From Planctomycetota bacterium (lineage in GTDB: Bacteria; Planctomycetota; E44-bin39): a stretch of DNA of 64,000 bases. Within the stretch, counting starts at the first letter, position 1; every line of letters starts with the position of its first letter. Where the stretch lies: assembly GCA_004376375.1 (NCBI GenBank), contig SOJX01000096.1, positions 20,557 to 84,556 of the forward strand, given 5' to 3'. A program made the translations under genes and the position numbers. The notes below the pieces were generated by a model. That model had not been told where the DNA came from, made no database searches, and was given only the letters and a program-made list of their open reading frames with translations. This document shows positions 5,279-61,380 of this stretch, in pieces.

Positions 5279-5420
5279 CCGTTCGAGCGGCATTCAAAAA
5301 GTAACGTACAGGAACTCTTCCGCCCAGACATCGGAGAGCAGGATAATCAAAGCCGTTATCACAAAAATCAGGAACGAGAGGCCGAAGTCGAGTATAAGCT
5401 CTTTTATCCCGCTTTTCATT

Positions 5421-6569
5421 CTACCGTTTCCTTTTCATGAGAGGCGCTACCTTCCGCGCAAGTTCTTCGGCAACCCGCTCGTTGCCTTTCGGCATCAGAT
5501 GGTCCATATCGATGGTCTCTTCCGAGAGCACGAATTCCAGAAAATCGGTCACATCTTCAACCCCCTCCTCACGCAGTACTGACTTTATTATTTCATGTGC
5601 GTCCCGGATTTTTTCACCTTCATGCCGGGGGTCGCGTTTGATTAACTCCGCGGCATACCTGATAAAGTCGGCGTTGGCGTAGGAGACGTACCAGAACACG
5701 GGAGGTTTCTTCTCCTTCACGAAGCGAACCATTTTCCTGAGGTATTCAATCTGCTCTCTCTCTTCGCTGACATGCATATATTTATCGCTTAGGTACTTCA
5801 TCAAATAGAAAATGTCTCCGATATTGTGGCCGCCCGCATTCTTCCTGTGAATCCAGTTCCGGTGCTTTTTCGTCTCTTTTCCGCCCAGGCGGCCCAGGAA
5901 ATCCCTGCCCGCATCACTGTCAAGCCAGAAACGATACATGTTGCCGGATGCATACAGCCGCCAGCATCTCTTGAGCAGATGTGACGACCGCAGAGGCGCG
6001 CGCCTGAAAAACGACTGCGGCGCGAGCTCATCGAGTCCGGCCTCCCTATGCAGCCGGGTCACTTCAATCGCCACGGCGGGATAAAGCGAAGGCAACCTGG
6101 AAAATAATTCGGTGGCGTTTGAAAACATGCGGTGGCTCAACTGAAGAACAAATAAATCAGCGGAATAATCCGCAAACGCGGTCAGAAGCAGGAGCTTGTC
6201 GGCAGGCCCGCCTGCAACCTCGGAAAGGTTCACGACCTCGACGTTTTCAAGGCCGGGATATTTTCTAAGGGCAGTCTCGAGCTGAGGCGGCAGAATGTAA
6301 CGCGTCCGCATGTTGATTCCCTGGCCGGTGGAATCGCCGAGAAAAAAAACACGGGGATAATCCACGTTCTTGGGAAGGTGGGCAAGGCACCACTCTGTAT
6401 ATGCGGAACTGAAAACGGGGTTTCTGCGAAGCTCTTTCGGAAAGAAGACTCCGGGTGCGGCCCAGAGCAGCACGTCGGCAAGAATAAACCAGAAGAGAAT
6501 AAATAGGGCCAGGCGTATCACTCGGGGGTAGCTGAGTTTGCTTATATATTTTCTTACCGTCAAAATCAT
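5421..6569 (-). CDS. Membrane-anchored putative SGNH/GDSL-type hydrolase
   Basis: ATG at 6569 preceded by GGGAG. N-terminal transmembrane helix. FFLGDSTGQG block (GDS motif) shortly after the anchor. The ORF table extends to 6632 through the upstream repeat. Confidence 0.4.
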   Translation of the reverse strand: MILTVRKYISKLSYPRVIRLALFILFWFILADVLLWAAPGVFFPKELRRNPVFSSAYTEWCLAHLPKNVDYPRVFFLGDSTGQGINMRTRYILPPQLETALRKYPGLENVEVVNLSEVAGGPADKLLLLTAFADYSADLFVLQLSHRMFSNATELFSRLPSLYPAVAIEVTRLHREAGLDELAPQSFFRRAPLRSSHLLKRCWRLYASGNMYRFWLDSDAGRDFLGRLGGKETKKHRNWIHRKNAGGHNIGDIFYLMKYLSDKYMHVSEEREQIEYLRKMVRFVKEKKPPVFWYVSYANADFIRYAAELIKRDPRHEGEKIRDAHEIIKSVLREEGVEDVTDFLEFVLSEETIDMDHLMPKGNERVAEELARKVAPLMKRKR

Positions 6570-14870: not shown

Positions 14871-15014
14871 TTATCGCCCCGGGCCCGAAATGTAACGTTT
14901 ATGTAATACCTTCAAAGGCGGCATTTTTCACTACATTATTCCCCTTTTTAATCGTATAATTCCTAGAGGGAAAAGGTAAATATCTGCCGTATTCGAATAT
15001 CAAGGAGATATAAA

Positions 15015-15746
15015 ATGCGCGTACAAAAAAACCTCCAGTTTCTGCTTGGAGTAGCTATCCTTGCAATGGGCATAGTTCTTCTTATGACCCCATGCGCAAC
15101 AGGGTGAGGCGGCGGTGGAGCCCGGCGTCCGCCGTCGCGGCCGCCAGTAAGCCCGCCTCCAGGAGGAGGAGGACAACCCAGCAGCACACCCGACAGTCAA
15201 TGGCCCGAACCTGACCACGCACCACCGCCATCCACCGACGAAGACAAAAGTGGTGACAAAAGCGACGAAGGCGGTTCGAAAAGCAAAGTAACAAAGAAAC
15301 CCAAGGTGACCATCTTCGACGAGTTCGAAGGACTTGACAGCAAACGCGAAGATAAGCCCGTCATTTTCTTCTTCTACATCGAGGCCACGTCGCAGAAAGA
15401 CCGCAGCAAGCCGGTGCTGAATTCTCAACAGATGGCCAGGATGCTTGCGCACCCGAAAGTTTCCAATCAATTGAGCGAGTTCAGCTGCTACCGGCGCAAT
15501 TACAAAAAGACCAAGAAGGCCATTCGTAAGAAGTACAAGGTCAAGACCGCGCCGATGCTTGTCGTATTCGACGCCACCGGCAAGGTGATCTTCAGGACTA
15601 CGAGCTTCAAGATCAAGCCTGAAAGACTGGTGGCAACGCTCAAGAAGCTGGTCAAGAAATCTGAAAAGAATCTTGAGAAGTTCCAGAAGAAGCGCGAAAA
15701 GGATGAAGAAAAAGCTGCAAAAAAAGCTGAGAAAGAAAACGAATAA
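15015..15746 (+). CDS. Trx-fold paralog 0: signal peptide, in-frame TGA (15105-15107), Gly/Pro linker, thioredoxin-like domain, Lys-rich tail
   Basis: ATG at 15015 after GGAGA. MRVQKNLQFLLGVAILAMGIVLLMTPCATG-[TGA]-GGGGARRPPSRPP... continues in frame into the table ORF 15306..15746. Confidence 0.5.
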
Positions 15747-15772
15747 CAATTTACGACCCGACTGAACTAATG

Positions 15773-15805
15773 CTGAGCCCGGTCAAAGCCGGGCTCAGTT
15801 TCTTT
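15773..15805 (+). terminator. Rho-independent terminator after paralog 0
   Basis: ctgagcccggtcaaagccgggctcag hairpin followed by a T-rich run. Confidence 0.6.
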
Positions 15806-16009
15806 AATTGCCTTTTACATTACACAATCTGATTCTTCCACATAACTTACTGAGGTCAGCATAGATATACGCGCTGCTTCATTCCGTTGCCCCAGGCGTG
15901 AAAAGCCGGACTGGAAAGTCTGTCTATTTATGCCCTAAATGTCCTTTTACCGGCGCAATACAATAACTGTCACGTTTTTGTAATAATTGGATACAAATGT
16001 AATTCAAGC

Positions 16010-16038
16010 TTGTCATAGCAGAATTTCCGGGATATAAT
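16010..16038 (+). promoter_or_regulatory. Sigma70-like promoter of paralog 1 (TTGTCA-17-TATAAT)
   Basis: TTGTCA at 16010-16015, TATAAT at 16033-16038. Conserved TTTTGTAATAA box 24 nt upstream (15976-15986). Confidence 0.5.
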
Positions 16039-16129
16039 AGGAACAGATAAGGGAAGAAAGGTGTAAGGTTATATAGATGGTTTGATCTATGGCTCCGTTC
16101 GCCGAAGAACGGCCATGGAGGGAGGACCA

Positions 16130-17017
16130 ATGCAACGCACACTAGTTTTATTTATCGCGGCCCTGGCCATCACTGTTATGGCCCTGGACCTTCCCGCATA
16201 TTGCTGAGGTGGCGGAGGAGGATCGCGACCGCCGGCGCGGCCGCCAGCAAGACCGCCGACTCCACCTCCGGCACCGCCTCCGCGTCCGCCGAGTACGCCA
16301 CCGCCGAGCACACCGAGACCGCCGAGTACGCCACCGCCGAGCACGCCGACTCCGCCGAGGACGCCGACTCCGCCTCCAAGGCTGTCGACGCCTATTCCGC
16401 CAAGAGCTCCTGTAACGCTCGGCTGGCCGGAAGCGAAGCCGGTAGCGAACCCGACGCCGAAGAACGAGCCGACCATTACCGGCCGCGGCATCTTCGGTAA
16501 AAAGGACGGCAAAGCGGGAAAAGCGGAAAAATCGGCGAACAAGGTTATCGTCAAAAAGAAGGTGAAAATAACCTGCTTCGACGACTTCGACGCGCTGAAG
16601 GGCAAGGAAGAGAACAAGCCGGTCGTCATTTTCGTGTACTGGCCCGACAGGACCGACGACGCCGGCCGCACCTCAAAGCTCTATGCAAACTGCCAGAAGA
16701 TGATTGAAGTCCTTGCCAACGCGGACGTGCAATCCGCGCTGAGACAGTGTCAGTGCTACAAAGTGAATTTCCAGGGGCTTGACAAATCGCGCCGCAAACG
16801 TTACGGCGTGAAATCCGTACCGACGCTGCTCTTCATCGACGCAACCGGCAAGGTTCTCAAGAGACTTACATCACCGCGGATAAAACCCGCGAGCCTGGTT
16901 CGGCTGATACTGACCGTCGTCAAGAAGTCGGACAAGAACATGGAGAAGCTCGAGAAGAAGCGCGAAAGAGCCGCGGAAAAGGCAGCGGAAAAGGCAGCGG
17001 AAAAGGAGCGATCTTAG
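16130..17017 (+). CDS. Trx-fold paralog 1 with in-frame TGA at 16205-16207
   Basis: GGAGGGAGG RBS. MQRTLVLFIAALAITVMALDLPAYC-[TGA]-GGGGGSRPPARPP... No in-frame ATG for 357 nt after the TGA, yet that stretch is conserved at protein level with the other copies. In frame with table ORF 16562..17017. Confidence 0.55.
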
Positions 17018-17065: not shown

Positions 17066-17097
17066 AAAGCCCGGGATTTATCCCGGGCTTTATTTTT
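17066..17097 (+). terminator. Rho-independent terminator after paralog 1
   Basis: aaagcccgggatttatcccgggcttt followed by ATTTTTGG. Confidence 0.65.
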
Positions 17098-17177
17098 GGC
17101 CTCTCCAAGGCCCGAAAATCGCATTATTTGCCTTGTGTAACAGTTTTGTAATAACAGATAATACTGCCCTAACTTAC

Positions 17178-17206
17178 TTGCATCCCGGCCCGCCATGTCT
17201 TAAAAT
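17178..17206 (+). promoter_or_regulatory. Sigma70-like promoter of paralog 2 (TTGCAT-17-TAAAAT)
   Basis: TTGCAT at 17178-17183, TAAAAT at 17201-17206. TTTTGTAATAA box at 17144-17154. Confidence 0.5.
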
Positions 17207-17261: not shown

Positions 17262-18074
17262 ATGAAAAAGCTGCCAATAATATTTATTGCTGCGCTGGCC
17301 ATCACCGTAATGGCCCTGGACCTTCCCGCATACTGCTGAGGCGGCGGAGGAGGATCGCGGCCGCCGGCGCGGCCGCCTGCAAGACCGCCGACACCAAGAC
17401 CGCCATCAAATCCCGGTGGTAACCCGGGTGGCAGTAATCCGGGTGGTGGAGGCACGCCAATGGTACCTACGGGTTCTAAACCGAGTATCAATTGGCCGGA
17501 AGCCAAACCAGTCGCCAACCCGACTCCCAAATCCGAGCCCACGACCACGGGCAGAGGGATTCTCGGGAAAAAAGACGACAAAACTGACGAGAAATCCGGC
17601 TCCAAAGTCATCGTCACCAAGAAGCCGAAAATTACCTGCTTCGACGACTTTGACGCGCTGAAGGGCAAGGAAGAGAACAAGCCAGTTGCCATTTTCGTGT
17701 ACTGGCCGGACCGGACAAACTCAAAAGGCCAGACGTCGAAGGCGTACCAGAACAGTCAGAAGATGATTGACCTCCTTGCCAAGTCTGCGGTTCAGTCGGC
17801 CTTCCGCGAGCTTAACTGCTACAAGGTGAACTACAAGTCGCTCGACAAGTCGCGCCTCAAACGCTACGGCGTGAGAGGCGCGCCGACGCTGCTCTTCATC
17901 GACGCGACCGGCAAGGTTCTCAAGAGAATCACCTCTTCGCGGATCAAGGCTGCAAGTCTTGTGAAACTGATCAAGACCGTTGTCAAGAAATCAGACAAGA
18001 ACCTTAAAAGGCTTCAGAAGAAGCGCGAAAAGGCAGAAGAGAAAAAAGCAAAAGAGGAAGAAGAGAAGAAATAA
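17262..18074 (+). CDS. Trx-fold paralog 2 with in-frame TGA at 17337-17339
   Basis: AAGGAGA RBS. MKKLPIIFIAALAITVMALDLPAYC-[TGA]-GGGGGSRPPARPP... In frame with table ORF 17460..18074. Confidence 0.55.
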
Positions 18075-18112: not shown

Positions 18113-18146
18113 AAAGCCCGGGACTCGTCCCGGGCTTTTGTTTTTC
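18113..18146 (+). terminator. Rho-independent terminator after paralog 2
   Basis: aaagcccgggactcgtcccgggctttt followed by GTTTTT. Confidence 0.65.
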
Positions 18147-20309: not shown

Positions 20310-21401
20310 TCAATAGCGCAGCAGGGCTGCGATATTGCCGACTTCGGTCAGGCCCGGAATCGGGTCGACGAAGTCCGCTTCCGCACCGGATGATGCGAGC
20401 AACTCGATTATCTCGTTGACAAGGTCGATTTTAAAAATTGACTGCGAGCCGCATTTGGAACAGGCCGCATGCGCTCCCTCGTCCAGATGATCGCAGTCGC
20501 GGCAGCGGATGCCGTCTATCCGAACATCGCGGCTGACGACAACCTTGCTGACCCGCCCCGCTTTCGCCGCGTCGAGCACGTCCGCGGCGCCGACGGTTGC
20601 CTTGCCTTTACGACAGTATTCGTTCCTGATCCGCTCCCAGAGCCTTTCTTCGGAGCGGCGTTCCTCGTCGAAGTACAGGTCGAATATTTCCCGGTTGATA
20701 CAATGCTCGCCTTCGGACAGGTTCATGGCCTTTTCGCCGACAAGTTTCCTGGCGAGATGGGCCGGAAGCACCCGCTTGATTTCAGCCAGCGTTTCCCTCG
20801 ACCCGGCCATAAGGATGCGGCGGAAGCTCTCGCTCCGGTCCAGTTCCTTAAGCCTGTCGACGATATCCTTGGCGTAATGATGAAGCTGTTTGTCGCGCCT
20901 GCGCTCGTAGCGCTGCTGCGACCAGCCGCCTTTCCGCACGTGGTTTTTTATATTCCCCCTGACTCGCTCCTCGGACTCGGCCTTCGCGGACACGACCAGA
21001 TAAATGCGGGCGGATTTATTGTCGGCGACGACCACCGCGAAATTCTCGTATTCGTCCTGCAGTTCGGCCAGCGGACGGATATAGGGCGAGGAATCAACGA
21101 TTAATAAATCGGGCATATCTACTTCAATCGGAAAGGCCTTGAAATAATCCAGCGCCCAGCAGGCGAAAATGCATATCCCGCCGGACTCGACCGGATTCTT
21201 CTTCAGGTATTTTTCCACAAGCTCGATGTTCTCATCGAAGTATTCCGCTTCGTCCCTGTTATCCCGTAAAAGAGAGCGCGTGTTCCCGATGCGCTTCCCC
21301 AGCGATTCCAGCGCTCCGGCATCGGAAAGGTAGAGGCTCAGAAACGCGCGGTCCGGCGCCGTTACTTTCGCCAATTCGCGCAGGTTGATTTTGTCGAACA
21401 T
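20310..21401 (-). CDS. Hypothetical protein, tentatively eRF1/Pelota-like (bacterial aeRF1-type), with a C-terminal C4 zinc ribbon
   Basis: 363 aa. Central KGGWSQQRYERRRD loop reminiscent of the eRF1/Dom34 central-domain loop. C-terminal CRDCDH...CSKCGS zinc ribbon. Assignment is by motif impression only. Confidence 0.3.
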   Translation of the reverse strand: MFDKINLRELAKVTAPDRAFLSLYLSDAGALESLGKRIGNTRSLLRDNRDEAEYFDENIELVEKYLKKNPVESGGICIFACWALDYFKAFPIEVDMPDLLIVDSSPYIRPLAELQDEYENFAVVVADNKSARIYLVVSAKAESEERVRGNIKNHVRKGGWSQQRYERRRDKQLHHYAKDIVDRLKELDRSESFRRILMAGSRETLAEIKRVLPAHLARKLVGEKAMNLSEGEHCINREIFDLYFDEERRSEERLWERIRNEYCRKGKATVGAADVLDAAKAGRVSKVVVSRDVRIDGIRCRDCDHLDEGAHAACSKCGSQSIFKIDLVNEIIELLASSGAEADFVDPIPGLTEVGNIAALLRY

Positions 21402-21634: not shown

Positions 21635-22219
21635 TTATCTCCTCAGTTCTTTCCATGTCTTTCCGCCGTTGGCGCGGATGAAATCTGCAATCGCTTCGTG
21701 CCGCAATAACTGCGCCCAGTCAAGGGGCGCACATCCGAATTCGTCTTTTGTATTGATGTCGGCCTTCATTCTTACCAGCGACTCAACAAGGTCCTTGTTT
21801 TTTTCCCGTATCGCCCAGAACAGCGGCGTCCAGTCGTCTTCATCTCTCGCGTCTATTTCCGCGCCTTTGTCGATCAGCAGCATCGCAACGTCATTCCATT
21901 TATTCCTTGCGGCCAGGTGCAGGGGGAAGCTCTTAAACATGCTCTTTGGCACCAGGGTGTTGACATGTTCCCAGTGTTCTGCCAGGAATTCCGCTGCCTT
22001 CTCGCCGCCTTCCAGTTCCCCCGCCAGCACATCGAAGCCTTTCCTGCCTTTGCCGAGCAGCCAGCTGACGGATTTCACCCTCTCTTTCGCGTCATTGGAA
22101 TGCAGACAGGAGGCGTTCCACAATATTCTCACCGGCGTCCACAGCAGGCAGGTCGCTATCACGGCCGCGAAAAGCAGGACGACGAAGATAGTGAGCTTGA
22201 GAGGCAGCGAAAGCTTCAT
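21635..22219 (-). CDS. Ankyrin-repeat protein with N-terminal signal/anchor
   Basis: Three or four ankyrin repeats (LHLAARNKWNDVAMLLIDKGAEIDARDEDDWTPLFWAIREKNKDLVESLV...). The N-terminal 19 aa are nearly identical to those of the 19284..20276 gene. Confidence 0.65.
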   Translation of the reverse strand: MKLSLPLKLTIFVVLLFAAVIATCLLWTPVRILWNASCLHSNDAKERVKSVSWLLGKGRKGFDVLAGELEGGEKAAEFLAEHWEHVNTLVPKSMFKSFPLHLAARNKWNDVAMLLIDKGAEIDARDEDDWTPLFWAIREKNKDLVESLVRMKADINTKDEFGCAPLDWAQLLRHEAIADFIRANGGKTWKELRR

Positions 22220-23410: not shown

Positions 23411-23653
23411 TAATTGATCTCCATTTTGCTGAATACCGAACCACCTGACCACCGTATTCTATCCCGCATTAGAAAAGAATGCAACCAATAGCAGAAAAGC
23501 GATGCCTCAAGAACAGGCAAGATGAACAAAAAGCAGGTAAACAAAGCGAAAAACCGGCAAAAATGCATCATTTCGGACATCTGCATCACCAAATCTGCTC
23601 TATTTGGCTTATGTAAAGGTTTTGTAATAATAGACAGGCGTGTCCTAATATAC

Positions 23654-23683
23654 TTGAAATGATTATCCGCGCTCAATATAATA
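23654..23683 (+). promoter_or_regulatory. Sigma70-like promoter of paralog 3 (TTGAAA-18-TATAAT)
   Basis: TTGAAA at 23654-23659, TATAAT at 23678-23683. TTTTGTAATAA box at 23620-23630. Confidence 0.5.
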
Positions 23684-23725: not shown

Positions 23726-24523
23726 ATGCAAAAACTGCTTACCACATTCCTGCTCGCTATGTGTGCAGTCGGATTTGCCTTGGACAATGTGGCCTATGCT
23801 GCCGGCGGCTGTTGAGGCGGCGGTGGCACTCCGCGGCCGCCGGCGCGGCCACCTACGACTCCAAGACCGCCTGCAGGAAATCCCGGGAACCCCGGTACTC
23901 CCAGTACGGGAACTCCCATTCAGCCTCGTACGCCCGCAGAACTCAGCTGGCCTGAGGCCAAACCCGTTGCCGAATCGACCCCTGAAGTTGAGCCCACAAC
24001 TACGGGCAAGGGAATTCTCGGTAAAAAGGACGACAAGGGCAAAACGGCTGAAGGGGAAAAATCCGGCAACAAGGTCGTCGTTAAAAAGCGAGAAAAACCC
24101 ACCTGCTTCGACGACTTCGACGCGCTGAAAGGGAAGGAAGAAAATAAACCTGTCCTCCTTTTCGTGTACTGGCCTGACATGAAGGATTCCAAAGGCCGCA
24201 CTTCGAAGGCCTACGAGAACTGCCGGAAGATGATTGAACTCCTTGCCAGGTCGTCGGTCCAGTCAGCCCTCGAAAAGATAGACTGTTACAAAGTCAACTA
24301 CAAGTCGCTCGACAAGGCGCGCCTCAAACGCTACGGCGTGAAAGGCACGCCGACGCTGATTTTCATCGACGCGACCGGCAAGGTGCTCAAGAGGATCACG
24401 TCTCCGCGGATAAAGCCGTCAAACCTTATCCGGTTGATTAAGACCATCGTCAAGAAATCGGACAGGAACCTGGAGAAGCTTCAGAAGAAGCGCGAGAAGG
24501 AAGAGGAAAAGCAGTCCAAGTAA
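23726..24523 (+). CDS. Trx-fold paralog 3 with in-frame TGA at 23813-23815
   Basis: MQKLLTTFLLAMCAVGFALDNVAYAAGGC-[TGA]-GGGGTPRPPARPP... In frame with table ORF 24164..24523. Confidence 0.55.
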
Positions 24524-24578: not shown

Positions 24579-25397
24579 ATGCGAAAACTGCTTATCCCGT
24601 TTGTACTCGCCTTATGCATAGTCGGATTTGCAGTAGATGATGTGACGCATGCATGCGACACCTGCGGCTGCGGTAAAAAAGGGCCTTGCGGTCCGAGCGG
24701 TGGCGGTGGCGGTGGTTGCTGAGGCAGCGGCGGCACTTCGAAGCCGCCGGTAGCTGGGCCTACCGGTAAAAACTCTCAGCCCGACAAGCCCATTGGCATC
24801 CCGTGGCCGGATGCAAAACCGGCATCTGAAGAAACGGTCACCGGCAAAGAAATCCTCAAGAAGAAAGACGACAAGGCCGCGGCCGGCAAAACCGATACCG
24901 GCAAAAACGCGGCAGAAAAGGGCGGAACCGACCCGAAAAAGGCGACCTGTTTCAACGACTTCGACGCGCTCAAAGGCAAGGAGTTGAAAAAGCCGATCCT
25001 TCTCTATTTCTACTGGCCCGAGGACAAGGCTTCGAAAAGCCGGGCGCAATACCGCGATTGTCAGAAGATGAACAAACTGCTTTTCGAGGACCCGGACGTC
25101 AAGGATGAACTTTCCAAACTCGATTGCTACAAGGTTAACCTGTCCATACTGAGTAAAGAGCTCAAGAAACAGTACAAGATTAAGAGCGCGCCGACGCTGA
25201 TCTTCATCGACCCGACCGGAAAGGTGCTCAAGAAAAGCTCTTCAACCAGGACAAAACCTTCGAGAATGGTCCGCCTGATAAAGTCGGTCGTCAAAGCCTC
25301 CGCCCGCAACCTGAAGCGGTACAAGAAAAAACTGGCGCAGGAAGAGAAAAAGGAAAAACCGCAGGCAAAGGAGGAAGACGAAGCCAAGGCCAAATGA
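24579..25397 (+). CDS. Trx-fold paralog 4 with in-frame TGA at 24720-24722; extra Cys cluster before the TGA; probably co-transcribed with paralog 3
   Basis: GGGAGA RBS. ...HACDTCGCGKKGPCGPSGGGGGGC-[TGA]-GSGG... In frame with table ORF 24984..25397. No separate promoter in the 55-nt gap after paralog 3. This copy ends with TGA. Confidence 0.5.
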
Positions 25398-25452: not shown

Positions 25453-25486
25453 AAAGCCCGGGATAAAACCCGGGCTTTTTTTCTGC
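25453..25486 (+). terminator. Rho-independent terminator after paralog 4
   Basis: aaagcccgggataaaacccgggctttttttc. Confidence 0.65.
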
Positions 25487-32659: not shown

Positions 32660-33340
32660 TTATCCTTTAAACTTATACCCCACGCTGCGGACGGAGATGA
32701 TGTACCTGGGGTCGGTCGCGTCTTCCTCGAGCGCCTTGCGCAGCTTCACGATATGGTTGTCGACGGTGCGGGTGGTCGGGGCGACGTCGTAGCCCCAGAC
32801 CGCTTTTAACAGTGCTTCCCGCGTAACAACCTTGCCGCGCCTTTCGATAAAGACCCTCAGAATATGAAACTCGCGGGTCGTAAGCTCGATCTTCTTCTTG
32901 CCTTTAACGACCTCCATCCGCTCGAAATCCACGCGGACGTTGCCGAACTTGTAGGATTTGAGCTCGGATTCCGGCTCCACCTCGCGGCGAAGGACCGCCT
33001 TCACACGGGCAAGAAACTCCTGCACGCCGAACGGCTTGGTGATGTAGTCGTCCGCGCCGAGGTCGAGGCCGCGCACCTTGTCGGTCTCTTCCCTCTTGGC
33101 GGAAAGGATTATTATGCGCGCCGGGTTCTTCTCCTTGCGCAGGCGCTTGCAGACCTCGAACCCGTTCATCTTCGGCAGCATGATGTCCAGGATAATCAGG
33201 TCCGGCGCCTTTTGCCGCGCGAGGGTGAGCCCTCTCTTCCCGTCCCGGGCGGTGAACACCGTATACCCATCCATCTCGAGATTGTCCTTAATGCCCATAA
33301 GGATCGGTCTTTCGTCCTCGACTACGAGTATCTTCTCCAT
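32660..33340 (-). CDS. OmpR/PhoB-family response regulator
   Basis: Receiver domain (VVEDE...D...ILDIMLP...K) plus winged-helix output domain. 226 aa. Confidence 0.85.
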   Translation of the reverse strand: MEKILVVEDERPILMGIKDNLEMDGYTVFTARDGKRGLTLARQKAPDLIILDIMLPKMNGFEVCKRLRKEKNPARIIILSAKREETDKVRGLDLGADDYITKPFGVQEFLARVKAVLRREVEPESELKSYKFGNVRVDFERMEVVKGKKKIELTTREFHILRVFIERRGKVVTREALLKAVWGYDVAPTTRTVDNHIVKLRKALEEDATDPRYIISVRSVGYKFKG

Positions 33341-33357
33341 GGATTATTCCTTCCCGC

Positions 33358-35571
33358 CTACCCGCTTTCATCAAGCGGCAGCGCTATGGTAAAAATACTA
33401 CCCTTGCCCGGAGAACTCTGGACGTCGATCTGCCCGCCGTGAGCGGTTGCCACGGCCTGGACAAGCGTAAGGCCGAGCCCTGTGCCGGATACTTCCGGAA
33501 TCTCTCTGCTGCCGGCGCGGTAAAACTTATCGAATATCCGCTCCAGGTCTTCCTCCCTGATTCCAATCCCCCGGTCGCGTACGCTGATACGGACGTGCCC
33601 CTCAACCAGTTTGACCGAAACATCGATTATGCGGTCCTCTTCCCGAGAATACTTCACAGCGTTCGACAGGAGGTTAAGAACGGAACGGCTCAGGGCGTCC
33701 TGGTCCATCTGAATTACCGGTACGTCTTCGTCGAAAGAAGTCCGCACCTCGAAATCCTGCTCCTGCATGTAATAGCTGAAGACCTGAAGCGTCCTGCGCA
33801 CGACTTCCACCGGGTCGGCCGGAGCGAATGAGTAACTTTTCTTCCCGGCCTCGAGCCTGGAAAAGTCCAGGACATTATCAATTAATTTTGTGAGCCGTTC
33901 GCTTTCCGCGGAAATAATGTCGTAGTATTCCCGCCGTTTGTTTTCATCAGGTACGCGGTCGAGCTTCAGCATCTCCCCGAACATGCGAATCGAGGTAAGG
34001 GGGGTCTTGAGCTCATGCGAGACATTGGATACGAAACTCGCGCGCAGCCGGGTCAGCTCGAGCTCTTTGCGGATAAACCTGAGCACCAGGAAAACACCGA
34101 GCAGGAGACTCACAACCAGAACGGAAATGAGCGCGATATCCAGGTTTCTTCTCCTCGCAAATATGCGGGAGAGCTCGCGCGGGTCACGGAAGAAAACCTG
34201 AAGTTTCATATCCGAAAGCGGCGCCGGCATGGCAACTTCAAGATGAGGCTTCGCCGCTTCGAGCGGTTTTGTTCCGGCGAGCACTTTTCCGTTTTTGCCA
34301 ACCGCCGCCACGGAAATTTCTTCCGGGAAGCGCTCGGCGGAAAGCAAGGGAGGCAGAACGTCCCTGATCAACCTGACCTCGTCAAGCGCAAAACCGGCCG
34401 CGATATATTTCCTGTCGCTCCGCTGTCCGACCCGGAAGATAAAGCGAAAATCACATTCCTCCCTTTCCACGGTATAGTCCAGCCGTTTATCAAGATATTC
34501 TCCCATTTCGCTGAACTTTGATTTGAAATCCATTGCAAAAGAATCGCTGATAACGCCCCCGAGTTTCTTTATCCATGTCTCACGCCGTCTCTCATGACGC
34601 AATAACGAATACCTTCTTCGAATTTCATCGTCAACCGGATTTCGCTTCAACAACGAATCCAGCCTGCCCCCGGCAATGTCAAGATAGGCCCGTTTCTCCC
34701 GTGCCGAGATACTGAAACGGCGCTCGAGAAGCCCTTTGTACAGTTCACTCAGGGCGTTCGCCGCGTTCCGCGTGCGGCCAAGCTTCAGGGCGCAGTCGGC
34801 CCATTGAAAATATGCAATAAGCCTGAGCGGAATATCTTCGCCGGCAAAAAGAGACGCGACTGCGCCTCCCGCACCGTCACTTGAAACTGCAATCTCGCGG
34901 AACAGGCCCAGCGCCTTTTCGTAGTTCTTCTCGCGGTAGTAAGTGTTTGCAATCATGTCCCGCGAAAGCAGGGCTAAATCGCCGTTGGAAGGTTTTGCCA
35001 GTTGTGTAATCGCTATATGCTGATTGCGGGCTGCGGTCCGGTCGCCCTGAACGTTCTGCATCTCAAGCGCATTTTCGTAAAGATCGAGCAGTCTGCCGCG
35101 CTCAAGATGCAAACGCCGTAAAGCCTTTCCCTTAAGCTCTGCGCCCGGTTGAGACGTCACGAGGAATTCAAGCAGGTCGGGCCTTCCCGCCGCGGAACCG
35201 GACGGGGGCGGGTATAGAACTTCCCCGGTCGTATCGAATGCGAACGCTTCTACAATAAGCGGCTCCTCTTTTACAAGATCCTTTACCAATCCGCCGAAGT
35301 TTTTTCCAAGCCTGCCGCCCACGGCTCGCGGGATAATTTCCTCCGTGATAGCGTAGTCCATAAGGCCGAAATGCTTTTCCAGGCTGTCCATGACCAGCCC
35401 GAGCTGGCGGCGGTATTCTTCGCGGTAACGCTGTTCAAATACAAGCTGTTCCTGCCCGAGGCTGGTGAGGCTGTAATACGAAAGGAAAAGGCCCGGCAGC
35501 ACAATCAGGAAAACGAAAGTGAGCACGATGTAAAGATAGGTGCGTTTTGCCGATACCGGTCGCTGCGCCAT
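33358..35571 (-). CDS. Sensor histidine kinase with a large N-terminal sensor region (helical/TPR-like)
   Basis: One transmembrane helix near the N-terminus, a second before the HisKA domain. H-box SHELKTPLTSI. HATPase_c G-boxes (GTGLGLTLV). Adjacent to the response regulator. Confidence 0.8.
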   Translation of the reverse strand: MAQRPVSAKRTYLYIVLTFVFLIVLPGLFLSYYSLTSLGQEQLVFEQRYREEYRRQLGLVMDSLEKHFGLMDYAITEEIIPRAVGGRLGKNFGGLVKDLVKEEPLIVEAFAFDTTGEVLYPPPSGSAAGRPDLLEFLVTSQPGAELKGKALRRLHLERGRLLDLYENALEMQNVQGDRTAARNQHIAITQLAKPSNGDLALLSRDMIANTYYREKNYEKALGLFREIAVSSDGAGGAVASLFAGEDIPLRLIAYFQWADCALKLGRTRNAANALSELYKGLLERRFSISAREKRAYLDIAGGRLDSLLKRNPVDDEIRRRYSLLRHERRRETWIKKLGGVISDSFAMDFKSKFSEMGEYLDKRLDYTVEREECDFRFIFRVGQRSDRKYIAAGFALDEVRLIRDVLPPLLSAERFPEEISVAAVGKNGKVLAGTKPLEAAKPHLEVAMPAPLSDMKLQVFFRDPRELSRIFARRRNLDIALISVLVVSLLLGVFLVLRFIRKELELTRLRASFVSNVSHELKTPLTSIRMFGEMLKLDRVPDENKRREYYDIISAESERLTKLIDNVLDFSRLEAGKKSYSFAPADPVEVVRRTLQVFSYYMQEQDFEVRTSFDEDVPVIQMDQDALSRSVLNLLSNAVKYSREEDRIIDVSVKLVEGHVRISVRDRGIGIREEDLERIFDKFYRAGSREIPEVSGTGLGLTLVQAVATAHGGQIDVQSSPGKGSIFTIALPLDESG

Positions 35572-49036: not shown

Positions 49037-49990
49037 TTATCGATTCTCGAACTTTGTGCCGGCGTGGAATTCCTCGAGGTATACCTCGGCGCCTCGCGCG
49101 GCCGTGGCGCCCTCCCCGACGGCAACTGCAATCTGCTTGAACAGGTTGGCGCGGATGTCGCCGCAGACGAAAAGTCCGCGCGTCTTTGTTTCCATCGACT
49201 TACCTGTACGGATAAAACCGAGCCTGTTCCTGGCCACCGGAACCTTGATGAAATCCGTCTTCGCGAGAAAACCGACGAAGATAAAGCAGCCTTCGACGTC
49301 CAGGCTTCCGGCTTCTTCCGTCTTGACATTCTTCAGCGCTACGGACTTCAACAGGTCCTCGCCGCAAAATTCCGTTACAACTGTATCCCAGTGTACTTTT
49401 ATTTTATCGTTTTTTGCAGCCCTCGCGGCAAGGCCCGGGTCCGCCCGGAGCTTGTCGCGCCTGTGGATAATGTGAACCGCATCGGCGAAACGCGTAAGAA
49501 ACAGGGCCTCCTCGACGGCGGAGTCGCCGCCCCCGACAACGGCAACCTGCCTGCCGCGGTAAAGCGGGCCGTCGCACGTCGCGCAGTACGAAATACCCTT
49601 GCCGGAGTACCTGTCGTGGCCGGGCACATTGTACTGCCTGCGCTCGACGCCGGTGGCGACAATCACCGATTTTGCATCGAGTTTTTCGGAATCAGTCTCG
49701 ACCATGAACTCGCACTCGTCCTGTTTTTCAATCGAACTCACGGCCGCGGTCTTTATCTCGGCGCCGAACCGCCTGGCCTGCTCCGCCATCGCGCTTGAAA
49801 GCTCCATTCCCGTTACAGGCTTTGGGAACCCCGGATAGTTCTCAATCTCGAAAGTCTCGTTCATCATACCGCCGGGAAGCCCTTTCTCGAGAACAACCGT
49901 CGTGAGCTCCGAGCGTGAGGCATATATGGCGGCCGTCAGGCCCGCAGGCCCGCCGCCGACGATTACGACATCGTAACAGGACGCGTCCAT
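49037..49990 (-). CDS. trxB: Thioredoxin-disulfide reductase
   Basis: VVIVGGGPAGLTAAIY FAD motif. CATCDG redox-active disulfide. Second GGGDSA NADPH motif. 317 aa. Confidence 0.85.
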   Translation of the reverse strand: MDASCYDVVIVGGGPAGLTAAIYASRSELTTVVLEKGLPGGMMNETFEIENYPGFPKPVTGMELSSAMAEQARRFGAEIKTAAVSSIEKQDECEFMVETDSEKLDAKSVIVATGVERRQYNVPGHDRYSGKGISYCATCDGPLYRGRQVAVVGGGDSAVEEALFLTRFADAVHIIHRRDKLRADPGLAARAAKNDKIKVHWDTVVTEFCGEDLLKSVALKNVKTEEAGSLDVEGCFIFVGFLAKTDFIKVPVARNRLGFIRTGKSMETKTRGLFVCGDIRANLFKQIAVAVGEGATAARGAEVYLEEFHAGTKFENR

Positions 49991-54548: not shown

Positions 54549-54834
54549 AGGTAAAATTCCTTCCCAAGCTCTGGATTACCGAAACGCGACTTTTACCGAA
54601 ATACGACAATTTCATCGGCTGTAATATTCTGCATTTATATCAAACGGCTCAATTTTTTATAATAACCTCTTGCGCTGAGCGGGGAAATCTGGTAAATTGG
54701 AATATCTGTGTAACTCAGCCGGTCCACACAGCGTTTGTAAAATTTGCAGGTTGTCCGCTTTCATAATGCCCTTTTTAGTCGGCATTATGAACGCAGAAAC
54801 CGGGTGAACCGCAACCCCGATAAGGTGAGGTAAT

Positions 54835-55179
54835 ATGCTTACCATTGAAGTAAAAGCAGATATACTCGGCCTGCGGGTTATAAATGTCGGAGCCGCGTTC
54901 GACGAAGACTGCCTGACGCGCATGCACGATGAAATCAGCCGCGCGATAATCGAGGATCAACACACCATTATTTACGATTTCTCCGAGGTGAAGGAAATCA
55001 CCTCAGGCGAAGGCGCGATTTTCCTGGGATTGCTTGCCACCGTGCGCGACCACGGTATTTTCCAGGCTATTGCGAACCTGCAGATTCCGGTCCGAAGAAT
55101 TTTCAACCTCATCGGAATAACGCAGGTGGTTAAGACTTACGATTCGGTGGAAAGCGCAATAGGGGTCCTGGCTGCATAG
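54835..55179 (+). CDS. STAS-domain protein (anti-sigma-factor antagonist-like)
   Basis: 114 aa. SpoIIAA-like pattern (MLTIEVKADILGLRVINVGAAFDEDC...). Confidence 0.55.
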   Translation: MLTIEVKADILGLRVINVGAAFDEDCLTRMHDEISRAIIEDQHTIIYDFSEVKEITSGEGAIFLGLLATVRDHGIFQAIANLQIPVRRIFNLIGITQVVKTYDSVESAIGVLAA

Positions 55180-60421: not shown

Positions 60422-61249
60422 CTATTTTACCCGGAAAGAACCCGTATAGACTTTGAGAGCGCCGCCGCGAACCTGCATCAGCGTAAGGTTGCACGCATCC
60501 GCCGTCTCCACGGCAAGCGAGGTCGGAGCGCCGCGGGACAGCAGAAACGGAACACCGACCCGGAGGCCCTTCAGCACAATATCGAACGACGGGCGGCCCG
60601 ACGTCGAAAGAAGAAGATCGTGCATCGCCGCGCCCGAGAGAACCGCCATTCCGATAACCTTGTCGACCGCGTTGTGGCGGCCGACGTCGTCCGCGAACGC
60701 GATTGAGTCCTCTCCCCGCCACAGTGCGGCCGAATGTACGCCGCGGGTACTGCCGTAAAGCTCCGACATCTTCACGAAGCGCCGCTGGCAATCGATTACC
60801 GCGTCCGCGGCGACCGACGCCATCATGTTTATCTTGAAATCGCAATCGGAAAGATCAATGTGGGATGAAAACGTAATGCCCCGGCCGCACCCGGTGGTAA
60901 ACGACGCGCGGGCCGCCATGTCTTCAAGTCTTTTCTCATCGATCGCGGCGGTGACGCTGACAACCCCCTCCTCCCGGTCCACATCAATGGACGATATCTC
61001 CTCGCGCCTCCTGACAATCGCCTCGGTAAGAAAATAGCCGATCACCATTTCCTCGAGCCGGCCGGGCGAGCACTGTAGCGTCATGAAGTGTTTGCCGTTC
61101 AGGAGGATCCTGACGGGAGCCTCGACTGCAACGGAAGCGCCGGTCTCTTCCTTTTTGCCCGACCGGTAAATGACTATGTTTCTGTCTACCTGCATCTTCC
61201 CGAAAGCCACAAGAAACTCCTGGTCTTGAATGTAAAAAGTTAATAACAA
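60422..61249 (-). CDS. fdhD: FdhD-family sulfurtransferase (formate dehydrogenase accessory protein)
   Basis: Conserved Cys loop ...TGCGRG... and GRHNAVDKVIG block. 275 aa. Confidence 0.7.
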   Translation of the reverse strand: MLLTFYIQDQEFLVAFGKMQVDRNIVIYRSGKKEETGASVAVEAPVRILLNGKHFMTLQCSPGRLEEMVIGYFLTEAIVRRREEISSIDVDREEGVVSVTAAIDEKRLEDMAARASFTTGCGRGITFSSHIDLSDCDFKINMMASVAADAVIDCQRRFVKMSELYGSTRGVHSAALWRGEDSIAFADDVGRHNAVDKVIGMAVLSGAAMHDLLLSTSGRPSFDIVLKGLRVGVPFLLSRGAPTSLAVETADACNLTLMQVRGGALKVYTGSFRVK

Positions 61250-61380
61250 ATAAAATCATCGGCGCGACATTGTATCAGAAGAAACGTATACATTGAAGAA
61301 CAAATTAGCCGGGCGCAAAAGACTTGAAAGGAGCATTTCCTTTTGTTATAAGCTGCAAAAACCGCGGGGAGGCAAAGACG

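Follow-up and report, generated by a model that had tools for sequence, protein, structure and literature searches.

A TGTAA direct repeat upstream of a family of probable selenoprotein genes in Planctomycetota is a predicted operator of the OmpR/PhoB type

Introduction

Identical 5-6-mers placed head to tail and one helical turn apart are the hallmark of operators bound by winged-helix regulators of the OmpR/PhoB family. The half-site of ArcA is TGTTA. CpxR, whose targets include DsbA and other factors for folding and redox reactions in the periplasm, recognizes GTAAA-N5-GTAAA. In promoters that carry a Pho box, the box takes the place of the -35 hexamer. UP elements, a different kind of upstream promoter sequence, span -40 to -60. 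To our knowledge, the promoters and operators of Planctomycetota are almost undescribed.

The footprinted consensus of WalR/VicR, TGTWAH-N5-TGTWAH, is very similar to the PhoB box CTGTCATAWAWCTGTCAY (PMC4168254). At isaA of S. aureus, WalR motifs precede the transcription start by 49 and 228 nt (PMC6624279). OmpR-family activators work from boxes 12-58 nt upstream of the -10, which is the range of box-to--10 distances in the PhoP set (PMC3335776). Direct-repeat sites are also described for ArcA (PMC4173790).

The stretch of DNA analysed here, referred to as the window, comprises 64,000 nt (64 kb) of a contig from a Planctomycetota bacterium. The analysis assigned it to a MAG of an uncultured member of this phylum (GCA_030588815.1, locus tags E3J72_). 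A first-pass annotation of the window had pointed to a short box, TTTTGTAATAA, shared by the promoters of several paralogous genes. The genes, their promoters and the larger repeat to which this box belongs are described below, and the repeat is considered as a predicted operator.

Results

Paralogous genes and their transcription units

The window holds five paralogs, c0 to c4 (Table 1), which were collected by tblastn with the C-terminal domain. Both c0 and c4 are absent from the first-pass annotation, and its count of three paralogs with three promoters is replaced by five genes and four predicted promoters. In each paralog, a signal peptide and a Cys-x(0-3)-UGA motif are followed by a Gly run and a Pro-rich linker, and then by a conserved domain that ends in a Lys/Glu tail. 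The c4 gene begins 55 nt after c3 with no promoter or terminator between them, so the terminator that follows c4 closes a two-gene operon in which c4 is predicted to be co-transcribed with c3.

G+C-rich hairpins followed by a T run, the form of an intrinsic terminator, stand after c0, c1, c2 and c4. The statement that every gene has its own terminator is correct for c1 and c2 and fails for the third annotated copy, c3, which has none. The terminators of c1, c2 and c4 share a perfectly palindromic stem, AAAGCCCGGG/CCCGGGCTTT, with different loops, and the window has no further copy of it. The same stem follows family genes in related genomes (position 3330 of contig L008, 6435 of L009, 6625 of L007 and 758 of L010). 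It was found only after family members, both in the window and in the relatives, which upholds the proposal that promoter, gene and terminator were duplicated as a module and indicates that the three travelled together. The duplications are old, since they happened before the separation of lineages in which identity of the neighbouring gene has dropped to 70%. The identity of the stem across paralogs and genomes could be explained by gene conversion or by an extra constraint on the stem sequence.

Table 1. Positions in the window of the direct repeats (DR), predicted promoters, paralogous genes, terminators and candidate regulatory genes. PWM, score against the position weight matrix described in the text.
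Feature	Position	Strand	Description
DR0	14891..14907	+	TGTAAC-GTTTA-TGTAAT; upstream of c0; exact TGTWAH-N5-TGTWAH; PWM 19.3; conserved in orthologous intergenic regions
c0 core promoter	14932..14960	+	Predicted; weak -35 TACATT 14932-14937, 17-nt spacer, -10 TATAAT 14955-14960
c0 CDS	15015..15746	+	In-frame TGA 15105; motif CATG-U-GGGG
Terminator after c0	15772..15799	+	
DR1	15968..15984	+	TGTCAC-GTTTT-TGTAAT; box 15976-15986 is its 3' part; PWM 18.5
c1 core promoter	16010..16038	+	Predicted; TTGTCA-17-TATAAT, hexamers at 16010 and 16033; 11/12 consensus positions
c1 CDS	16130..17017	+	In-frame TGA 16205; motif AYC-U-GGGGG
Terminator after c1	17066..17091	+	AAAGCCCGGG-loop-CCCGGGCTTT
DR2	17136..17152	+	TGTAAC-AGTTT-TGTAAT; PWM 23.4
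c2 core promoter	17178..17206	+	Predicted; TTGCAT-17-TAAAAT, hexamers at 17178 and 17201
c2 CDS	17262..18074	+	In-frame TGA 17337; C-terminal domain modelled as thioredoxin fold
Terminator after c2	18113..18138	+	AAAGCCCGGG/CCCGGGCTTT stem
DR3	23612..23628	+	TGTAAA-GGTTT-TGTAAT; PWM 24.9
c3-c4 operon core promoter	23654..23682	+	Predicted; TTGAAA-17-TATAAT, hexamers at 23654 and 23677; 11/12 consensus positions
c3 CDS	23726..24523	+	In-frame TGA 23813
c4 CDS	24579..25397	+	In-frame TGA 24720; without own promoter or repeat
Terminator closing c3-c4 operon	25453..25478	+	AAAGCCCGGG...CCCGGGCTTT
Post-UGA segments	15105-15150, 16205-16250, 17337-17382, 23813-23858, 24720-24765		Possible GGCGG/CCGCC hairpin starting 4-5 nt after UGA
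Response regulator gene	32660..33340	-	OmpR/PhoB family; Pfam Response_reg + Trans_reg_C; candidate binder only
Histidine kinase gene	33358..35571	-	Partner of the response regulator; HisKA + HATPase_c

A 17-bp direct repeat contains the annotated box

A pattern search of the window located TTTTGTAATAA exactly where it had been annotated, at 15976-15986, 17144-17154 and 23620-23630 on the + strand, and returned no fourth exact copy. Random occurrence of the motif across the genome had been named as one result that would count against it; within the 64-kb window, exact copies stand only before these three promoters. The identical spacing also holds, with 34 nt from the start of the box to the start of the -35 in all three cases, as does the extended upstream similarity of copies 2 and 3 (flank identity 0.62-0.64, compared to about 0.3 for other pairs). 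When one mismatch was allowed there were six matches in the window, against 0.92 expected. The three additional copies were rejected as instances of the same element: that at 5356 lies within a gene, that at 54655 abuts a -35 and that at 61341 overlaps a -10.

In every case a second TGTAA (TGTCA in DR1) lies 11 bp 5' of the TGTAA of the box. The region upstream of c0 has no exact box; it carries TGTAACGTTTATGTAATAC instead, 47 nt before TATAAT, and it was this sequence that allowed the direct repeat to be recognized as the real unit. The unit is 17 bp long, TGTAAH-N5-TGTAAT, with the core TGTAA-NNNTTN-TGTAA and a period of 11 bp. In related genomes the box takes the forms TTGTGTAATTC, TTTTGTAATGA, TTTTGTAATAG and TTTGTGTAAAT, and its trailing AA and first Ts are unconserved outside the window. 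Since the relatives differ in the trailing AA and in some of the Ts, while the upstream TGTAA is invariant, the alignment indicates that TTTTGTAATAA is only the 3' half of the direct repeat plus the T-rich end of its spacer, and that the 11-mer is not the functional unit.

The repeat is far more frequent than expected by chance. In 300 first-order Markov simulations, TGTMA-N6-TGTAA was expected 0.06 times per window and was observed four times; the composite of the repeat, 25-26 nt, TTG, 20 nt and TANNNT was observed three times and never in the simulations. All four repeats of the window are on the + strand, and the ATG of a paralog follows each of them at a distance of 108-162 nt. Inspection of the window sites and of the alignment with the relatives revealed no third half-site 11 bp to either side.

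Geometry relative to the predicted promoters

The three promoters that carry the exact box all have a 17-nt spacer between -35 and -10. Their hexamers lie where they had been placed, except that the TATAAT of the third copy starts at 23677 and not at 23678. The repeat is 24-25 nt upstream of the -35, its 3' half-site starting 30-31 nt and its 5' half-site 41-42 nt before that hexamer. These distances are three and four helical turns, so both half-sites are on the same face of the DNA as the -35. The repeat-to--10 distance is 48 nt. For a transcription start placed about 7 nt beyond the -10, the repeat occupies about -77 to -61 and is centred near -69. The 5'UTR varies from 37 to 85 nt while the distance from repeat to hexamers is fixed, which ties the element to transcription initiation and not to the coding region. 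The hexamers, the 17-nt spacers and the phylogenetic conservation of the -10, which for the c0-type promoter extends to L009, L007 and L011, are consistent with promoters of the sigma-70 type; these promoters and their start sites are predictions.

The long 5'UTR of c1 contains, within 16078-16129, a hairpin that ends just 5' of the GGAGGGAGG Shine-Dalgarno sequence. The folding energy of the whole UTR is about -25 kcal/mol (z = -2.1), and the hairpin is mostly kept in the orthologous UTR of L009.

Conservation in related genomes

Homologues of the family were present on further contigs. L009 derives from a close relative, L007 from a more distant MAG that is syntenic with the window (VWA gene, three paralogs, GT2, topA), and L008 and L011 are short. 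L004 and L006 carry out-of-cluster paralogs and belong to the same genome as the window, and L010 begins at a family gene without its upstream region. Four related Planctomycetota contigs have the repeat upstream of family genes, always in the same orientation: L009 (4141, 5397 and 6504), L007 (3058 and 5666), L008 (2385) and L011 (797). Together with the window sites, the 11-bp period is kept in 11 of 11 sites, all of which point to the promoter.

An ungapped alignment was made of eight sites from the window, L007, L008 and L011, with the near-identical L009 sites excluded. Eleven of the 17 columns are invariant (TGT.A...TT.TGTAA) and the T that follows is present in seven of the eight sites. 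The 17-mer has a pairwise identity of 0.80, compared to 0.32-0.33 for the 25-nt flanks. The WalR/VicR consensus TGTWAH-N5-TGTWAH is matched exactly by seven of these sites and with one mismatch (TGTCAC) by the eighth; within the window, exact matches occur only at paralog sites. The four orthologous intergenic regions behind the VWA gene, a gene with nucleotide identities of 92, 71 and 70%, provide a second view of this conservation. Their only invariant parts are the repeat, the -10, a run of Ts that precedes the -35, and the Shine-Dalgarno/ATG.

A position weight matrix (PWM) was built from the four L007, L008 and L011 sites only, and the ranking that it gives in the window is not circular because the matrix comes from foreign sites alone. 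Among 128,000 positions, the four window sites took ranks 1-4 (24.9, 23.4, 19.3 and 18.5), and the next score was 14.9. This next match, TGGAATATCTGTGTAAC at 54698-54714 (+), is the best one not associated with a paralog. A STAS-domain gene (54835-55179) is preceded there by a promoter-like site, TTGCGC-17-TAAATT; the match begins with the final base of its -10 and extends over the position where transcription would probably start. On L006, a small gene with a weak STAS_2 match lies upstream of the out-of-cluster paralog, and the paralog on L004 directly follows a 109-aa gene without a Pfam match.

About 85 kb of this genome were scanned without revealing other high-scoring repeat sites. The two same-genome paralogs, P0002 (L004, the form without UGA) and P0006 (L006, operonic), have no repeat upstream.

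The promoter geometry is also conserved. In L007, L008 and L011 there are 24-25 nt from the repeat to TTGNNN and a 17-nt spacer to the -10; for the first L007 promoter (L007a) this requires TATACT as the -10, as read by hand from the alignment. The c0- and c1-type promoters of L009 keep the geometry of the window. In the case of the L009 orthologue of c2 (6504-6560, compared to 17136-17206 in the window), a 34-nt deletion has removed the -35 and the spacer and has left the repeat and the -10. The repeat there ends 14 nt before the -10, a geometry resembling that of class-II sites of PhoB and PhoP. This promoter lost its -35 region and kept the repeat, so the fixed spacing is not absolutely required.

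The sites belong to paralogous and orthologous promoters, are related by descent and are thus not fully independent samples. Taken together, these data show that the repeat is real and non-random, has a fixed geometry and orientation, is restricted to these promoters, and is conserved across paralogs and genomes against diverged flanks.

The encoded protein family

The family comprises 15 clusters among 5.8 billion proteins. It has no firm Pfam or NCBIfam assignment, and its sole Pfam match is a weak one to Thioredoxin_2. The modelled C-terminal domain (mean pLDDT 82, above 90 over the core) has a thioredoxin fold and is closest to the C-terminal domain of DsbD (DsbD-gamma) and to DsbH, with WPD(R) in place of CXXC. 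Scans of the genome and metagenome contigs with degenerate peptide patterns for more family loci produced only distant thioredoxin-like matches.

The UGA is kept in all homologues but P0002, which has Cys in that region, and other genes of the window end at TGA as a normal stop. Conservation of the UGA together with this use of TGA makes selenocysteine the likely reading of the codon, and the paralogs probably constitute an undescribed selenoprotein family. Third codon positions after the UGA (GGN GGN GGA GGA ... CGG CCG CCG GCG CGG CCG CC) seem by eye to be kept across paralogs and genomes. On folding, the GGCGG/CCGCC hairpins of these segments were stable. However, they were no better than those of shuffled sequences and showed almost no covariation, and for these reasons a SECIS element is not demonstrated. 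Rfam and tRNA scans of the window found nothing.

Several other genes of the window can be mentioned here. A thioredoxin-reductase-like flavoprotein is encoded at 49037-49990 (-), and a gene of the FdhD/NarQ family at 60422-61249 (-); formate dehydrogenase, in many cases a selenoenzyme, depends on FdhD as an accessory factor. A baeRF_family10 gene (20310-21401, -), whose product has an eRF1-like fold and resembles a ribosome hibernation factor in NCBIfam at a score below cutoff, adjoins an ankyrin-repeat gene (21635-22219, -). This pair sits between the two clusters of UGA-containing paralogs, and an ankyrin gene is also found near the out-of-cluster paralog on L006.

A candidate regulator in the window

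Essentially all long ORFs of the window were scanned with Pfam, and the response regulator gene at 32660-33340 was the sole recognizable DNA-binding regulator. Its best NCBIfam models are YycF/WalR (224 bits) and PhoB (222), followed by RpaB and MtrA; those of the adjoining kinase are PnpS, PhoR and WalK. All scores of both proteins are below the equivalog cutoffs (YycF, 224 compared to 340 for the regulator; WalK, 189 compared to 725 for the kinase), so that the window, in which this is the only such pair, contains no WalRK equivalogs. Among PDB structures, the DNA-binding domain of the regulator is closest to DrrB (1P2F, 1e-17), followed by VicR/WalR/YycF (5e-17 to 2e-16) and, at lower ranks, PhoB (1.5e-13), OmpR (3e-10) and CpxR (2e-6). 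A search for usable literature on the DNA motif of RpaA found none.

An OmpR-family regulator in the window agrees, though weakly, with the operator reading proposed below. It is doubtful that the pair at 32660-35571 is the regulator of the repeat. The regulator gene is 7 kb from the paralogs and behind unrelated genes, the differences between its model scores are small, and no repeat that might signal autoregulation was found upstream of the regulator-kinase operon. The genome surely encodes further OmpR-family regulators.

Discussion

The reading favoured here, to which a probability slightly below 60% is assigned, is that the repeat is a predicted operator to which an OmpR/PhoB-family response regulator would bind near -69 as a tandem dimer, and from which it would probably activate and co-regulate c0, c1, c2 and c3-c4. 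We infer that the repeat is bound by a protein, that this protein is of the OmpR/PhoB type, that it activates, and that transcription starts follow the predicted -10s. In such a mechanism, a winged-helix regulator would bind head to tail as a phosphorylated dimer, one monomer to each TGTAA. The upstream, in-phase dimer would then recruit RNA polymerase in class-I fashion through the C-terminal domain of its alpha subunit, and c0, c1, c2 and the c3-c4 operon would come under one signal. The repeat has the generic features of OmpR/PhoB operators, namely direct repeats of about one turn in a fixed orientation to the promoter. The class-I-like activation by a tandem dimer is suggested by the known distances of 12-58 nt between OmpR-family boxes and the -10, and by the WalR motifs 49 and 228 nt upstream at isaA.

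The main alternative, unlikely overall and still the one that deserves most weight among the rivals, is that the repeat is an operator for a transcription factor of another family, or that the protein bound there represses or modulates, for example as a tandem binder that damps strong promoters. The c1 and c3 promoters match 11 of 12 sigma-70 consensus positions. Activation is normally superfluous at promoters of this kind, and the role of the element might be repression or modulation only. The promoters of c1, of its L009 orthologue and of L008 have extra TGTAA half-sites, which adjoin the -35 or closely follow the -10, and no regulator is tied to the repeat. However, the 11-bp head-to-tail TGTNA core is the signature of the OmpR/PhoB family (WalR, PhoB), and a site at -77 to -61 leaves RNA polymerase unoccluded. 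The c0-type promoter, with its poor -35 TACATT in both the window and L009, would suit dependence on an activator.

It had also been suggested that the box is either an operator or an UP element. The notion of a shared cis-regulatory element stands, whereas a promoter part contacted directly by the alpha C-terminal domains of RNA polymerase, with no regulator involved, is very improbable. The region is A/T-rich and upstream of the -35, and a conserved T run (CATTTT) just before the -35 of several promoters could be a proximal UP subsite. The repeat itself, however, is too far upstream for an UP element, whose range is -40 to -60, and each of its halves contains an invariant G. It is a precise 5-mer at an 11-bp period instead of an A/T tract, and is absent from other promoter-like sites in the window.

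Slightly less probable again is a tandem promoter arrangement, in which the box would be the extended -10 (TGtAATAAT) of a second, upstream promoter, or its TTGTAA a -35. A consensus scan did find TTGGCT-16-AATAAT with a TG at 23604-23631, and TTGCCT-16-AATAAC occupies the same place upstream of c2. These AATAAT and AATAAC hexamers are confined to the window; the relatives have AATTCC, AATGAA, AATAGA and AAATCC at this position and keep the TGTAA. In addition, the second base of TGTAAT is not the A that is critical in a -10, no suitably spaced -35 exists in copy 1, and the upstream TGTAA half is left unexplained. An ECF-sigma -35 (TGTAAC) was considered as well and rejected, as the two halves have the same sequence and a CGT-type -10 is missing downstream.

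A functionless leftover of duplication or of gene conversion between paralogs is about as improbable as a second promoter: the sites do share a common descent, similarity between copies 2 and 3 extends over about 60 nt and the identical terminator stems could reflect conversion, but the flanks have fallen to about 32% identity (near random) against 11 invariant columns in eight sites from four lineages, whose neighbouring gene is about 70% identical, and the distance to the -35 and -10 is preserved while the intervening sequence is not.

An OmpR/PhoB-type operator would bear on two matters. Phylogenetic footprinting of the repeat at a fixed distance from -35 and -10 hexamers indirectly supports the use of sigma-70-type promoters by this lineage and defines a testable regulon. 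Co-regulation of a small family of probable selenoproteins, with one signal and one regulator, would offer a handle on what these proteins do. The repeat itself is a conventional kind of site and the gene family is the more unusual part. A further and only tentative proposal is that Planctomycetota have a dedicated two-component system, possibly the pair at 32660-35571, with a DNA-binding domain like that of WalR or PhoB, and that its lineage-specific regulon consists of secreted Cys-Sec proteins of the thioredoxin fold.

Among the known systems, ArcA and CpxR likewise use short direct repeats of the TGT/GTAA type for tandem OmpR-family monomers, with a different spacing or core. ArcA mostly represses, from sites that overlap the promoter. 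The control of DsbA by CpxR is a functional analogy to a thioredoxin-fold regulon, although the DNA-binding domain of CpxR is a poor match to that of the local regulator. The PhoP promoters of Salmonella also have a direct-repeat box at a fixed, helically phased distance from the -10, which is 48 nt here. The PhoP half-site is (T/G)GTTTA, and distal PhoP boxes (30-58 nt) are reversed and accompanied by a second box, whereas the promoters described here have a single box in one orientation.

The Pho box CTGTCATAWAWCTGTCAY has the same TGTNA cores, the 11-bp repeat and an A/T-rich spacer. Its core is TGTCA, as in the half-site at 15968, compared to TGTAA elsewhere here. The Pho box replaces the -35, whereas the present repeat ends 24-25 nt upstream of a recognizable -35 and lies three turns further upstream, except in the L009 deletion variant (14 nt from the -10). 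CTGTCAT repeats overlapping or replacing the -35 are thus not what these promoters contain, and no pst or pho genes are nearby.

The WalR/VicR/YycF box shows a close likeness, with the same two direct hexamers, the same 5-nt spacer and the same 11-bp period, and the WalR motif positions at isaA are comparable to the position of about -69 found here. It is a box of Firmicutes, whereas the present sites come from a Planctomycetota MAG, and here W is always A and a TT is conserved in the spacer. The regulons also differ, since WalR targets cell-wall hydrolases and the genes described here encode secreted, Sec-containing, DsbD-gamma-like proteins of the thioredoxin fold. If the dedicated two-component system is real, the WalR box sequence of Firmicutes would have been reused in a phylum unrelated to them, where it would serve an unrelated function in a circuit responsive to envelope redox state or to selenium.
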